Origin: Gemmataceae bacterium
Lineage (GTDB): Bacteria; Planctomycetota; Planctomycetia; Gemmatales; Gemmataceae
Direction: 5' to 3'
Assembly (NCBI GenBank): GCA_025055215.1
Contig: JANWYO010000143.1
Span: 827-64,826, forward strand
DNA: 64,000 nt
Positions 8,859 through 16,200 of this stretch are shown piece after piece; position 1 is the stretch's first letter, and each line of letters begins with the position of its first letter. The notes below the pieces were generated by a model that did not search any database, had not been told where the DNA came from, and saw nothing but the letters and a program-made list of their open reading frames with translations. The translations under genes and the position numbers were made by a program.

Positions 8859-9011
8859 ATGCCCCGTCTCCTTCATTGCGAGATCCCGTTGCGCGTCGCC
8901 GGCCCGGGGAGTCCCCCTTCCCGCGGGCGGCGATCCCCCGTGGCGCGCGGTCACGCCGCGGCGCGTCCGCACGTGCGTGTTGCGTTGCCTGCCAGAAATT
9001 GAAGGCGGCGG

Positions 9012-9039
9012 ACCATACCGCGCCCACGGCCAAGGTCAA
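9012..9039 (-). promoter_or_regulatory. Sigma70-like promoter candidate TTGACC-N16-TATGGT for the beta-barrel gene
   Basis: Hexamers read on the minus strand, 17 nt downstream of the 3' end of repeat copy 2 and about 150 nt upstream of ATG 8858. Confidence 0.35.
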
Positions 9040-9056
9040 GAGGAAATTCTTGAACG

Positions 9057-9267
9057 CCCCTCTGTTTTTCGGCGGGGCGGCGGTGCAGCCGCGGAGCGCG
9101 GCTCCTCGGTTCGCGCTGGGGCGAGGATGGGAGGCACGTGCCGAGCACGCAGGGAGGTTTCACGATTGATCACACCTCGCGCTGGCTGCGTCCCGAGCGA
9201 ACGCCAGCCAATGAATCGTTGCGGCGGGGAGTGGGGATGTGACTCGGTGGCGCGAGCGGCACCGAAC
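9057..9267 (-). repeat. Intergenic repeat family, copy 2
   Basis: The reverse complement shares CATCCCCACTCCCCGCC, GATTCAT..GGCGTTCGC, the ACGCAG/CTGCGT hairpin, CCTCCCATCCTCGCCCCAGCGCGAACCGA, CGCTCCGCGGCTGCACC and AAAAACAGAGGGG with the other copies. Confidence 0.7.
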
Positions 9268-9403
9268 GGGCTGGGGCCAGCAATTGGGCTTCCCAGCTGG
9301 TTTCCGGGGCGCGCTGGGGTACACCGGCCCGTATGGCCCCAGCCCAGGCAGAAGCCGGGGGTTGCTCGGCGCTTTCCGGCTTCAGCCGGAAAGCGCCGGC
9401 GGC

Positions 9404-10933
9404 TCATGGGGCGCTCGCGGCCTGCCGCTTAAGCCAGCGTTGCCAGGTCTGCCGCGCTTCCTGCGTCAGCCGAGAGTCCGGATTGCCTTGCGCCAAGAGT
9501 TCGAGGATGCGGCCGGCCTCGGGGGTATCCATTTGCTCCAAGGCCTCCAGGCAGCGTAAGGCTCGCAATTGCGTGGGCGACGGCACCGCCCGTTCCAAGG
9601 CGTCGAGGAGTCGGCCGATGCGCAAGGCCACTTCCAGCGAGGGTTCGCTGAGGAGGGTTTGCCGGAGGGCTTCTTCCGCCAGTTCGTCCATCTGCCGCAG
9701 CTGGGCCTGGGCCCGCTGCCGCACCATGAAACTTTCGTCATCCAGCTCGGCGATCAGCTTGGCGAGGCGGCGGCGGTCGATGGGCGGAACGGGCTTGAGG
9801 CGATCCTTGACATACGCAGAGGCCTGCTCCGGGTGGGCAGCCAAGGCCCAGATCGCCTGATGCGCTCGAAAGGCATCGAGATGAGCCAAGTCGGCCCAGA
9901 GCTGGTCGAGGTCCGGGGTGGGCACCGGCCCAACCGGGCCGGCGCCCGGCCGGGCAGGGCCCATCAGGTTCCAGACGACGACTTGGGTGTCCGAACTCCC
10001 CGAGACCAGCCGCTTGCCATCCGGGGCAAAGGCCACCGCCATGACGGCGTTCTGGTGGCCGGCGAAAAGACTTCGTTCCCGCCCCGTGGCGATTTCCCAC
10101 AACCGAACGCTGCGATCTTCGCCGGCGGTCGCCACCGTTCGGCCATTGGGGGAGACGGCGAGGTACTTGGCCCCGCCCGGGTGCTGGATGTGGCGTCGTT
10201 CCCGGCCGGTGGCCAGTTCCCACATCTTCACGCTTCGGTCCTGCCACCCCCCGGAGAGCAGCGACTTGCCATCGGGGGAGAAAACCACGGGCCAGATGGC
10301 CCCTTGGTGGGCGTCGATGCGGCGCAGCTCGCGGCCGGTCGCTACCTCCCAGACGCGGATAGTGCCATCTTTGCCGCCCGAGGCGAGGAGCTTACCGTCG
10401 GGGGAGAACGCCACGGGCCAGACGCCACCGTGATGTCCCAAAAATTGCCGAATCTCTTGGCCCGCCTCCACGTCCCAGAGTCGAACCGTTCCGTCTTCGC
10501 TCGCCGAGGCCACGAATCGGCCGTCCGGCGAGAAGGCGACGGCCCAAACCGGTCCTTGGTGGCCCACCAGCTGACGAAGTTCTTTCCCCGTGGCCGGATC
10601 CCAGATGTGAATTGCCCGCGCCTCGCTGACCGATGCCAGCAGTCGGCCATCGGGGGAAAAGCACACGCTCCAGACCTGGCCCGGAGCGCCGTCCAATGCC
10701 GCCAGTAGCTTCCCGGAAGTGACGTCCCAGAGGCGGATCGTCCTGCCCTGGCCAGCGCTGGCGACGCTTCGCCCGTCTGGGGCGAAGGCCACGGCCAAGA
10801 CCTGTTCGCCATGGTGGAACCGAGCCAATTCCAGGCTCGGTTCCGGTTTTTCCCCGGGTTGGGCCCCTCCTCGATTGGCCAGCAGGACGACCAGACACGC
10901 GGCCAGAAATCCCTTTCGGCACTGCCAAGACAT
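9404..10933 (-). CDS. WD40-repeat protein with N-terminal signal/anchor and C-terminal helical (HEAT-like) module
   Basis: Seven-plus repeats of the type GH.G.VW.VAFSPDG..LAS...D.T.RLWD. Start ATG 10933 (MSWQCRKGFLAACLVVLLA) follows GGAGGTG. ATG 10981 is possible. The C-terminus carries LIAELDDESFMVRQRA. Confidence 0.8.
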   Translation of the reverse strand: MSWQCRKGFLAACLVVLLANRGGAQPGEKPEPSLELARFHHGEQVLAVAFAPDGRSVASAGQGRTIRLWDVTSGKLLAALDGAPGQVWSVCFSPDGRLLASVSEARAIHIWDPATGKELRQLVGHQGPVWAVAFSPDGRFVASASEDGTVRLWDVEAGQEIRQFLGHHGGVWPVAFSPDGKLLASGGKDGTIRVWEVATGRELRRIDAHQGAIWPVVFSPDGKSLLSGGWQDRSVKMWELATGRERRHIQHPGGAKYLAVSPNGRTVATAGEDRSVRLWEIATGRERSLFAGHQNAVMAVAFAPDGKRLVSGSSDTQVVVWNLMGPARPGAGPVGPVPTPDLDQLWADLAHLDAFRAHQAIWALAAHPEQASAYVKDRLKPVPPIDRRRLAKLIAELDDESFMVRQRAQAQLRQMDELAEEALRQTLLSEPSLEVALRIGRLLDALERAVPSPTQLRALRCLEALEQMDTPEAGRILELLAQGNPDSRLTQEARQTWQRWLKRQAASAP

Positions 10934-11099
10934 GGGCCACCTCCATTTGGCCAAGTCAGCGCGTGGGAAGCGATGGGTCATGGCTTCTTCTCCGTTCCGA
11001 GGCCCCGCCTTGTCCGTAAGAGCGGAGCACTTTCCCGATTCTACCGAATTTCCTACCCCCTTGAATATGCCGATTTTGCCCTCAACCCCGGCCACTCAA

Positions 11100-11128
11100 T
11101 TGACAGTACGCGGCCAATCCCCTAAATT
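11100..11128 (+). promoter_or_regulatory. Sigma70-like promoter TTGACA-N17-TAAATT for the cimA leader
   Basis: Perfect -35 hexamer at 11100-11105, 17-nt spacer and a 4/6 -10 at 11123-11128, about 280 nt upstream of the cimA ATG. Confidence 0.45.
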
Positions 11129-11208
11129 TCATACGTTCGACCGAAACTCAGACCGGGCACGGCCGGTCGGCCTGCCCGGCCGGCGGGGAGTTGTCTTCGG
11201 AGCCGACG

Positions 11209-11292
11209 GTGACCGCGTTGCGGGCCCTGTTGCCGATCGCCATTACCGCGGCGCAGGGAGTGCGCCGGACCCAACTCGGGAGCATCGACTAG
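11209..11292 (+). promoter_or_regulatory. Candidate leader-peptide ORF (27 codons, MTALRALLPIAITAAQGVRRTQLGSID) in the cimA leader
   Basis: GGAG at 11199-11202, 6-nt spacer, GTG at 11209, TAG at 11290. Four Leu, three Ile and one Val. Uses TTG x2 and ATT, which I would expect to be low-usage codons at this GC content. Confidence 0.3.
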
Positions 11293-11339
11293 CGCGGCTT
11301 CAGGGACAATCTCCCGCTGGATGACGAGTGACAAAACCC

Positions 11340-11372
11340 AACCCTGGAGCGTGCAGGCTCCAGGGTTTTTTT
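11340..11372 (+). terminator. Intrinsic terminator / attenuator hairpin 37 nt upstream of cimA
   Basis: AACCCTGGAGC-GTGCAG-GCTCCAGGGTT followed by T7. No + strand gene ends upstream, so it lies inside the cimA 5' leader. Confidence 0.6.
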
Positions 11373-11408
11373 GTTGGGCGCGACGACACAGCCAAAGGCC
11401 GGACGACC

Positions 11409-12977
<1,569 letters not shown>

Positions 12978-13128
12978 CCGACGGAAGCTCAGCCCCCAAG
13001 GCCGTCCCCGCTCGGCAAACGCCCCCACGCTTCGGCGATGGAACAGAAGGCGGGTCCGGCCCCTCCGCGGGAAGTCGGGGCCCGATTGACGCCAAACTGA
13101 CCGCGGATGCGCGCCGGCGGCCCGCCCG

Positions 13129-13156
13129 GGCAGCCCGGCCGAAGGGCCGGGCTGCC
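13129..13156. terminator. Perfect 12-bp GC hairpin with GAAG loop between convergent cimA and czcA
   Basis: GGCAGCCCGGCC-GAAG-GGCCGGGCTGCC. No U-tract on either strand. Confidence 0.35.
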
Positions 13157-13247
13157 GGCCTGACTGCCGTCGCCGGCGAGACACCGCCCGTGACGGATGC
13201 GAACCGCGTCGTCTCGCATCGTCGCCTGTCCGGGGTGGTGTCCCGTT

Positions 13248-16200
13248 TCAGTGCCCCGTGGTCGAGGCGGATGGGATGGGCGTAACTTTCGGCGGCAGCA
13301 GGTAGTACAGCACCGGCAGGACGAAAAGGGTCAGCATCAGGGCACTGGACAGGCCCCAGACAATGACCGTAGCCAGCGGGCGTTGCACGTCGGAACCCAG
13401 CCCCGTGGCCAGCGAAGCCGGGAGCAGGCCGAAGATGGCCACGATGGCGGTCATCAGGATCGGCCGCAAGCGCTGTTGGGCGCCGGTCAGGATGGCCTCC
13501 TCCAGCTCCAGGCCCCCCTCCCGCAGCACGTTGATGCCACGAACCATCAGCACCCCGTCCATGATGGCAATGCCGAACAGGGCGCAGAACCCCACGCCCG
13601 TCGAGACGTTGATGTGCATGCCCCGAACGTCGAGGGCGAGCAACGCTCCAATGCACGCGAAGGGGATACCGGCCACCACCAGCACCGCCGCCCGGATCGA
13701 TCCGAACGTTACGACTAGCAGCCCCAGAACCAGGAGGGCGGTGATCGGGATCAGGAAGCCGAAATGGCGGCGGGCGCGATCCAGGTTCTCGAACATGCCC
13801 AGCCAAGCGACGCGATAGCCGGCCGGGAGGTCCGGGCGGACCTCGGCGTCGAACCGTTGCTGTGCTTCCTTGACGAAGCCGCCCTGGTCGCGGCCGACGA
13901 TGTCGCAGCGGACGGTAATGCGGCGGCGGCCCCCTTCCCGGGCGATGATCGTTTGGCCATCGACCAGATCAATCCGGGCAACCTGGCCCAGCGGCACCGG
14001 TTGCCCGTCGGTCGAATGGACGGGCAGCCGCCCGACGGCCACAGGGGAGTTGACCACCTCTCGATCAACTTTGACGGCGATCTCGAACCGGCGCTCTCCC
14101 TCGTAAAGGGTGCCTACCGATTGCCCCCCCAAGGCCACGTTGATCAACTCGGTGACGTCTTCGATGCGAACGTTGTGCCGGGCACACCGTTGGCGATCGG
14201 GGATGATGACCAGTTGCGGCTGAGGCCCCTCCTGCTCGATGTTCACGTCCTGGGCGCCGGGAATCTCGCGGAGCAGGTCCACGGTTCGTCGGGCCAGGGC
14301 GAGGAGCACGTCGGAATCAGCTCCGGAGAATTCGATCGCCAGGTTGGCCGACGTCCCGTTGGTGTCTTCGGTCACGCTGTCGATGATGGGCTGGGTGAAG
14401 TTGAAGCGGGTGGTGGGGAATTCCTCCCGCAAGCGTTTTCCGATGGCCGCCACCAGGTCGTGCTTAGTGCGGAACTGGGTCCACTGCTGTTTGGGCCGCG
14501 GGCCGATCATGATCTCCAGCCGGCTGGGCGGGAAAGGGTCGGTGCCGGAGTCGTTGCGGCCGGCCTGCACGGAGATGAAGCGCACGTCCGGGAACTCAAG
14601 CACCACTTCGCGGATTCGCCGACCATACTCGCTCGACTGGCGCAGGGACGTCCCCTCGGGAAAGTTGGCCCTTACCCAGATGACCCCCTCGTCGAGGTAG
14701 GGCAGGAACTCGACACCCAGCCGGGGAAGGAGGCGGAAGACCACTGCCGCCACGGCACAGCAGACGACGGCCAGTGTCAGCCAACGGCCGGCGATCAGCA
14801 CGCGCAGCCACCAGCTGTAAGCGGGCCGCGCCAGAGCCAAGAGCGGGTTTTCCCACTCGGTATAGCCGCGGCGGAAAATGACGGTAGCCAAGACCGGCAC
14901 CACAAACAGGGCGAACAGCAGCGACCCGAGCAAGGCGAAGACCATGGTCAGGGCCATCGGCCGAAACAGCAGCCCCTCGATGCTCGTCAAGGACAACAAC
15001 GGCAGGTAGGCCACCATGATGATGAGGACCGAAAAGAAGACCGGCCGCTCGATTTCTTGAGCGGCCGACAGCACCACCGCCGCCACGGGTCGGGGATCGC
15101 CGTGTTGCCGGGCTTCTCCCAGGCGGCGAGCGATGTGTTCGGCCATGATCACTGCCCCGTCTACGATGATGCCAAAGTCGATCGCCCCCACCGAGAGCAA
15201 GCCGATGGGGATGTCGCTGACGAACATCAGGATCAGGGCGAACAGCAGCGCGAAGGGGATGGTGAGGGCGACCAGGGCGGCCATCGCCGGCCGCCCTAGG
15301 AACAGCAGCAGCACCAGGACCACCAGGGTGATGCCCAACAAAACACTGTGGGCCACGGTGTGCAGCGTGGCGTCTACCAGGTGTTGGCGATCATAAAACG
15401 GGGCCACGCGGACGCCTGACGGCAGCACCGAGGCGTTCAGCTCTTCCACGGCCGCCGAGATCCCCGCCAGCACCCGCGACGGGTTCTCCCCCTTGCGCAG
15501 CAGCACGATCCCTTCGACCCCCTCGTCGCGATAGTCCTTGCTGAAGATCCCGGAGGGGGTCAGGTAGTCGAGGTCCACGGCGGCGACATCCCGCAGATAG
15601 ACGGGCGTGCCACCCACCGACTTGACGTACGTGTTCTCGATGTCCCGCAGGGTCTGGATCGAGCCACTGCCGCGGATGACGAACGACATGCTGCCGCGGG
15701 GAAGGACACTGCCGCCCGCCGAGGCATTGTTCGACTGGATGGCCTCGATGACGTCTTTGAGGGTCAGTCCAAAGCGGTCGAGATCGACGGGCCGAAAGGT
15801 GATGGCGAACTGTTTCTCCAGGCCGCCGAAGTTGGATACCTCCGCCACGCCCGGGACCCGCAGGAGCCGGGGGATCACCACCCAATCGTTCAGCTCCCGG
15901 AGATCCATCAGGTTGTAAGTGCCGTCGGACACCAGTTCGTAGCGATAAACTTCGCCGTAGGCGGTGGCCAGCGGCCCGAGTTCGGCCGTGGCCCCTTCCG
16001 GCAACTCGACGGCAGCCAGGTTCTCCTGCACGCGAGCCCGGGCCCAGTAGCTTTCCGTCCCCTCCTCGAAGATCAGTTGCACCACCGACAGGCCGAAAAT
16101 CGTCCGCGAGCGGATCGTCTCCACCCGGGGCACGGTCCGCATCGCCGTTTCGATGGGGATGGTGACTTGGCGCTCGACTTCCTCCGGCGCCCGGCCGGGG

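Follow-up and report, generated by a model that had tools for sequence, protein, structure and literature searches.

A probable leader-peptide attenuator with a conserved internal hairpin upstream of the citramalate synthase gene cimA in Gemmataceae

The citramalate synthase gene cimA of the Gemmataceae bacterium studied here (assembly GCA_025055215.1, contig JANWYO010000143.1, positions 827 to 64,826 of the forward strand; this whole stretch of 64,000 nucleotides is referred to as the window, and all positions are those of the window) is preceded by a leader that very probably works as a ribosome-mediated (leader-peptide) transcription attenuator, setting cimA by the supply of charged tRNA-Ile and, in most relatives, of charged tRNA-Val too. 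A preliminary description of this DNA had proposed a ribosome-mediated attenuator at this place, and four kinds of evidence now support that reading: a small open reading frame (ORF) kept among relatives, the position of its stop codon beside the 5' strand of an antiterminator (region 2), an enrichment of Val and Ile codons restricted to the reading frame, and a conserved terminator and antiterminator. The elements of the leader and the gene that follows it are listed below; SD stands for Shine-Dalgarno sequence and 5' UTR for 5' untranslated region.

11100..11128, + strand: sigma-70-type promoter, with -35 TTGACA at 11100-11105, a 17-nt spacer and -10 TAAATT at 11123-11128
11153..11179, + strand: G+C-rich 5'-UTR hairpin CCGGGCA.GGCC/GGCC.UGCCCGG, present in the minimum-free-energy folds
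11180..11205, + strand: 5'-UTR strand, candidate anti-antiterminator, predicted to form a 24-bp interrupted helix with 11295-11320; it includes the SD GGAG at 11199-11202
11209..11292, + strand: leader ORF of 27 codons, GTG start, TAG stop, peptide MTALRALLPIAITAAQGVRRTQLGSID
11225..11235, + strand: region 1 of the preliminary description (CCCUGUUGCCG), with 9/11 pairing to region 2
11242..11265, + strand: conserved RNA block AUU-ACC-GCG-GCGCA-GGGAG-UGCGC, in which the Ile codon ATT is separated by a fixed spacer of 6 nt from a 5-bp hairpin
11295..11305, + strand: region 2, antiterminator 5' strand CGGCUUCAGGG, a near copy of the terminator 3' arm that starts 2 nt after the leader stop
11340..11372, + strand: intrinsic terminator AACCCUGGAGC, loop GUGCAG, GCUCCAGGGUU, T run, with an 11-bp stem
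11409..12977, + strand: cimA, citramalate synthase of 522 aa, ATG at 11409, TIGR00977 match

The leader is widely distributed among relatives of this bacterium. When the 309-nt leader was compared with 60 relatives by BLAST, a single block of 35 nt (window 11233-11266) was recovered; 13 genomes from two families have it, with 88-97% identity. The resulting 14-genome alignment spans the -35 TTGAC, the block, a G-rich box, the terminator arm GCCCUGRAGC, the T run and the cimA start codon, and the covariance model built from these 14 sequences matches 142 of 267 Gemmatales genomes, mostly Gemmataceae, in 57 of 96 genera and usually once per genome. Leader copies are found almost always directly 5' of cimA: among the 123 copies that were fetched and oriented, 107 have the cimA N-terminal motif within ~100 nt downstream, and in several of the remaining 16 cimA lies at the fetched edge or beyond a longer spacer. 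Usable ORFs were present in 104 of the 123 and the conserved hairpin motif in 86. When the whole of this genome was scanned for such an architecture under strict criteria, the cimA leader was the only hit, and no leader repeats were found elsewhere in it. A chance origin of the elements is excluded on comparative grounds, because they are conserved in >100 genomes.

The leader ORF is present as first described, with 27 codons, a GTG start at 11209 placed 6 nt after its GGAG, a TAG stop at 11290-11292 and eight branched-chain residues (4 Leu, 3 Ile, 1 Val) in the peptide. The Ile codons in the window are ATC (11236-11238), ATT (11242-11244) and ATC (11284-11286). In all of the first 14 relatives an ATG or GTG lies in frame 7-12 codons 5' of the conserved block, and an in-frame ORF ending beside region 2 has been kept in 77 of the 86 block-bearing leaders, taking GCG CAG GGA GTG CGC as the conserved leader frame. 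Starts could be assigned in 72 leaders (GTG 57, ATG 15), of which 45 show an SD-like match (3 nt or longer) and 27 show none. The codon content is strongly frame-specific. Over the last 12 leader codons, Val (26.5%) and Ile (9.0%) together reach 35.5% in frame, compared with Val 3-4% and Ile 2% (about 5% together) in the other two frames; the typical tail of a relative reads ...AQGVR-VVVVITTG-stop, and a GTC-GTY-GTC codon periodicity is evident 3' of the hairpin. The four results (in-frame starts, a kept ORF, frame-specific Val/Ile codons and GTC periodicity) thus indicate, at the level of sequence, that the small ORF is translated. In addition, the leaders make much use of ATT, the rare Ile codon, with an ATT:ATC ratio of 165:157 vs 22:140 in cimA N-termini. 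Outside the RNA-constrained block the peptide itself is not conserved. Regarding the branched-chain signal, the original proposal holds for Ile, accompanied by Val in most relatives, but not for the Leu-Leu codons on which it laid stress, as Leu makes up 2% of the family tails.

The terminator described before the cimA ATG was confirmed, as a perfect 11-bp stem in which 11340-11350 pairs with 11357-11367 around a loop of 6 nt (-22.2 kcal/mol), followed by a T run whose last position is 11372. Between the T run and the cimA ATG there are 36 nt, in which no promoter-like site was found. It is also conserved in the relatives: across 101 model-aligned leaders 98.8% of terminator cells are paired, with compensatory changes in 7 of 11 pairs, a result that none of 500 shuffles equalled, and when terminator and small hairpin are taken together 99% of cells are paired and 85 show double changes (0/500 shuffles match). 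The terminator formed in 80 of 83 full-length leader folds.

Region 2 (CGGCTTCAGGG) provides the alternative to it. Its portion GCUUCAGGG (11297-11305) pairs 9/9, with one G-U, with CCCUGGAGC (11342-11350) in the 5' arm of the terminator, giving an antiterminator of -17.7 kcal/mol; this pairing had been noticed from the sequence of the window, and the complementarity proved to be conserved in relatives. The distance from leader stop to region 2 start falls between -13 and +4 nt in nearly all of them, and in 83 of 104 leaders the segment from the stop to the 5' arm folds, at minimum free energy, into the antiterminator. Antiterminator cells are 76.7% paired, vs 29-51% with the partner slid, and these pair counts are lowered by bulges in the region 2 alignment. 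One genome (G023) has region 2, 5' arm and 3' arm altered together (CAGAA / CUCUG / CAGAG). Ungapped complementarity compared with shuffles gave moderate support (mean z 1.7), and the terminator arm of a genome itself scored above the arms of other genomes in 81 of 115 cases.

The most conserved feature of the leader is one that the preliminary list of elements overlooked, namely the hairpin at 11251-11265 that comes right after the Ile codons. Its stem (11251-11255 with 11261-11265) closes a GGGAG loop, can be extended to 11249-11267 in the window and has a predicted stability of -13.8 kcal/mol; in the 101 leaders 99.6% of its cells are paired. The ATT located 6 nt 5' of the stem (positions -9 to -7) is 94-97% conserved, with no indels between the two, and the loop 85-93%. 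A third-position C, 4 nt 5' of the stem, is 100% conserved though its codon varies. In nine leaders the top pair of the hairpin is G-C in place of A-U, which turns the peptide AQGVR into ARGAR, and more divergent relatives have unrelated hairpins in the same position. Comparison of the leaders indicates that the block is selected as RNA and not as peptide, since 15 nt of it are free of synonymous variation, the compensatory change alters the peptide and the third-position C is fixed while its codon varies. A conserved functional or arrest peptide (PIAIxAAQGVR) was considered and excluded on the first two of these grounds. The palindrome CGATCG (within the Pro-Ile-Ala codons CCG ATC GCC; window 11233-11240) is moderately conserved in leaders as nucleotide sequence, at 56-97% per column.

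Such conservation at the RNA level would also be expected of a riboswitch-like RNA binding a ligand, a tRNA or a protein, with the block AUU-NNC-GNS-GCGCAGGGAGUGCGC as its sensor, the terminator as its expression platform and the ORF as an incidental or secondary feature. The lack of synonymous variation, the invariant C, the compensatory A-U to G-C change and the conserved loop all agree with this explanation and, as no Rfam family matches, the class would be a new one. We nevertheless consider it unlikely. The hairpin has just 5 bp, and RNAalifold found this hairpin and the terminator only, with no other conserved structured domain nearby; divergent relatives swap in unrelated hairpins, and the leaders of a second kind described below, rich in Ala codons and preceding an aminotransferase gene, are wholly devoid of the block. 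Besides, frame-specific Val and Ile codons, a kept ORF and a maintained distance from stop to region 2 have no role in a riboswitch.

Under the attenuator model, transcription would begin near 11135 and a ribosome loading at GGAG-N6-GTG would translate the 27-codon leader. With ample Ile, this ribosome would keep pace with the polymerase as far as the TAG at 11290 and cover region 2 (11295-11305), upon which the terminator (11340-11367) would form and transcription would halt at the T run. With scarce Ile, it would stall at the ATC and ATT codons (11236-11244), leaving region 2 free to pair with the 5' arm (11342-11350), and the antiterminator so formed would allow the polymerase to read through into cimA. 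In the absence of any leader translation, an upstream strand would capture region 2 and the terminator would form, so that the default state would be off; in the window the capturing strand would be 11180-11205 (5' UTR and SD) or, more weakly, 11225-11235. The hairpin would lie at the mRNA entrance of the ribosome with the ATT in the A site and probably pauses the polymerase, in which case coupling would be kept up only if Ile-tRNA is available. One likely role for it is that of a polymerase pause or synchronisation hairpin, melted by the ribosome only after the Ile codon has been decoded. A search for a Y-1/G+1 pause consensus 10-12 nt 3' of the hairpin gave a signal inseparable from the GTC codon periodicity.

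The partner of region 2 in the off state deserves attention. The preliminary description assigned this part to region 1 (CCCTGTTGCCG, 11225-11235), and its 9/11 complementarity to region 2 makes it a plausible but weak partner, with a predicted duplex of -19.0 kcal/mol that appears in the fold once the 5' UTR is left out. A ribosome stalling at the Ile codons would cover region 1, and several close relatives have a CYCUGA box at its position. It is not, however, the strongest candidate partner, since the 5'-UTR strand 11180-11205 is predicted to form with 11295-11320 a helix of 9+8+7 bp that encloses the whole leader ORF and, at -42.3 kcal/mol, is far stronger than either the region 1:2 duplex or the antiterminator. 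In these folding models 11180-11205 is the strongest candidate anti-antiterminator in the window. In 66 of 83 full-length folds of leaders region 2 pairs upstream, and the predicted partner in relatives mostly falls near the start codon of the leader, from -18 to +18. The 5'-UTR strand of the window may be a default-off protector, which would be neutralised by a second ribosome queued on the leader start or by steric hindrance.

The invariance of the block and the placement of the protector strand lead to a more specific proposal, which we put forward only tentatively and hold to be rather doubtful: the block would be a dedicated coupling module and, together with a protector strand that lies over the leader's own ribosome-binding site and needs a queued second ribosome, would define a distinct variant of attenuation. 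The Ile codon would be in the A site exactly when the hairpin is at the mRNA entrance of the ribosome, the same hairpin would pause RNA polymerase or use its fixed GGGAG loop to bind a factor acting in trans, and the decoding of a single ATT would gate the release of the polymerase. If true, one or two regulatory codons, the situation of the window, could be enough for the device to work.

Several observations weigh against the attenuator as described above. The window leader is poor in regulatory codons, with 3 Ile and 1 Val in 27, and its tail RTQLGSID (one Ile, no Val) is without the Val/Ile run of most relatives; a tail with at most one Val or Ile occurs in 10 of 77 leaders, the window included. 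In constrained folds, one ribosome stalled at the Ile codons leaves region 2 bound by 11180-11205, and the antiterminator wins only when the leader initiation region is also masked. Across relatives the anti-antiterminator duplex is weak vs shuffles (mean z = -0.6). Covariation in the antiterminator is modest, its score being equalled by 7 of 500 shuffles. Finally, the invariant GGGAG loop and the 100% conserved third-position C are unexplained by a simple attenuator model.

Some of these points could mean that the device of this particular genome is a decayed relic, either constitutively terminating or constitutively read through, in which the Val/Ile run has been lost and a 24-bp helix specific to this genome keeps region 2 locked. 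The Val-free tail goes in this direction, as does the fact that in the models the -42.3 kcal/mol helix wins over the antiterminator even when a ribosome is placed at the Ile codons. However, the start codon and its SD, the I-x-I codons, the hairpin, the stop spacing, the 11-bp terminator and the 9-bp antiterminator are all intact, nine other genomes with equally Val/Ile-poor tails (two of them from a second family) keep the whole architecture, and 24 bp of complementarity are unlikely to arise without selection, which makes decay very unlikely. Comparison with this minority rather suggests that the window leader is an Ile-only, Val-poor subtype and not a decayed form. Its regulatory codons would be the conserved ATC-GCC-ATT just 5' of the hairpin, an arrangement consistent with a sensor of Ile alone serving an Ile-specific enzyme.

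It is hardly credible that the unit is an independent small RNA (~235 nt) or small-protein gene merely lying beside a cimA with its own promoter, since, in spite of forming a complete unit with a near-consensus promoter, a strong terminator and a highly structured RNA (z = -4.7), it stands directly 5' of cimA and in the same orientation in many genera, well above 100 genomes in total, the 36 nt before the cimA ATG hold no promoter-like site, the duplication of the terminator 3' arm by region 2 is typical of a switch rather than of a simple terminator, and the peptide is unconserved beyond the RNA-constrained block.

The TTGACA-N17-TAAATT promoter of the preliminary description was found again at 11100-11128, agrees with the consensus at 10 of 12 positions and is the sole + strand sigma-70-like match in 9000-14000, a region where two such sites were observed on both strands vs 0.3 expected from shuffles. 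The 14-genome alignment shows a -35 TTGAC with little or no variation along with a -10 TAnAnT, and we place the putative transcription start near 11135. The leader RNA (11135-11375) has a predicted fold of -126 kcal/mol, z = -4.7 vs dinucleotide shuffles. The 5' UTR of the leader ORF is unusually long in the window, 74 nt compared with a median of 28 nt in relatives, and the hairpin at 11153-11179 appears to be specific to this long 5' UTR. The cimA product scores 703 bits against TIGR00977 citramalate synthase (cut-off 450), and the gene is monocistronic in the window, the next gene being on the minus strand. Upstream lies a beta-propeller gene in divergent orientation on the minus strand (ATG at 10934, SD GGAGG), so the terminator sits within the 5' leader of cimA, in agreement with the earlier observation that no + strand gene precedes it.

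Among known systems, the closest in logic are the leader-peptide attenuators of ilvGMEDA (ilvL) and ilvBN (ivbL) in E. coli and Salmonella, which share with the cimA leader, as modelled here, a short ORF rich in branched-chain codons in front of a branched-chain biosynthetic gene, charged tRNA as the signal, and mutually exclusive terminator and antiterminator chosen by the position of the ribosome. There is no sequence relation between them, though, and the differences are considerable: the cimA leader serves the citramalate route to isoleucine through a gene that E. coli lacks, does not use Leu codons, has a region 2 that abuts the stop and nearly copies the terminator 3' arm, bears an invariant small hairpin after an invariant ATT, and has its predicted protector strand at its own translation initiation region and not over the regulatory codons. 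In the trp operon attenuator of E. coli (trpL), the 1:2 pause hairpin synchronises transcription and translation. The four-segment logic (1:2, 2:3, 3:4), in which a ribosome at the stop masks segment 2, is proposed here as well, with candidate strands for the 1:2 pairing, and a hairpin within the leader could likewise pause the polymerase until the ribosome arrives. Unlike in trpL, the cimA hairpin (11251-11265) is separate from the 1:2 pairing and is sequence-invariant, loop included, across genera, a property not known to be needed by the trp pause hairpin; a pausing role for the cimA hairpin is what we infer from its position. The amino-acid leaders of Rfam (Leu_leader, Thr_leader, His_leader, Trp_leader, leu/phe leader) and the T-box belong to the same functional class, since they too act in cis in front of amino-acid genes and finish with a terminator, and the cimA leader differs from the T-box in being without Stem I/specifier architecture or T-box sequence.

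A cmscan of 10500-12000 against 4227 Rfam models (E <= 10) gave only chance-level matches to unrelated families. Full-text literature searches returned no description of cimA attenuation, nor of attenuation in Planctomycetota; one paper mentioning Planctomycetota counts distances from leader gene to structural gene in bulk. These searches agree with the earlier remark, whose author was not aware of any leader-peptide attenuation of branched-chain genes in this phylum. The mechanism is a textbook one; what would be new is the family, the target gene and the phylum, absent from Rfam and from the searchable literature.

Most known cases of leader-peptide attenuation come from Proteobacteria, Actinobacteria and a small number of further groups. 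Gene regulation in Planctomycetota has been little studied, and an attenuator there would extend the known range to this phylum and would imply close coupling of transcription and translation as well as canonical intrinsic termination. For the citramalate route, which leads to isoleucine independently of threonine, it would also be the first regulatory input to be predicted. The covariance model is ready for annotating >140 genomes, and the invariant hairpin after a rare ATT, together with the Ile-only and Ile/Val subtypes, offers compact systems for studying the minimum number of regulatory codons and the synchrony of pausing and decoding.

Leaders of the same layout and rich in Ala codons precede a pyridoxal phosphate (PLP) aminotransferase gene in six related genomes. 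These leaders are without the AUU/hairpin block, and the unit is a candidate alanine-sensing attenuator judging from its layout; such a parallel set indicates that this lineage uses leader-peptide attenuation more than once. One of them is located at L149/L251 (G309:C4:507700-509640, minus strand), and others are found in G344, G569, G252, G027 and G501. An example of the encoded peptide is MRNFVTISVFAAAASAGCAAVAIAAVVALE. The leader stop adjoins a copy of the terminator 3' arm, which is followed by a CCCCGGAG/CTCCGGGG terminator, and the gene after the leader encodes a 433-aa class-I PLP aminotransferase, corresponding to a MocR-type aminotransferase domain without the DNA-binding part.

In 24 cimA upstream regions from other orders, runs of Ile and Val codons and a terminator were present at loci labelled Pirellulales, Gimesia, Schlesneria and Thermoguttaceae. 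Three Isosphaeraceae cimA loci (two so labelled and Aquisphaera) had no such terminator in the 290 nt read. The cimA leaders of other orders (L202, L208, L235, L189, L230 and others, at positions 340-630) contain stretches such as AGC ATT ATT ATT ATT TGC, and their terminators are of the form CCCTCAGG...CCTGAGGG-T7.

A 14-mer pattern search allowing one mismatch over 401 genomes of the class was uninformative, as controls were equally frequent and only exact matches were useful. One exact match elsewhere, in contig 2 of G117, lies in G+C-rich sequence without leader features and looks like chance. Further upstream in the window, a perfect 12-bp inverted repeat followed by GTTTTT is found at 10815-10845 (+); it is terminator-like on the + strand and falls in the N-terminal coding part of the divergent beta-propeller gene.

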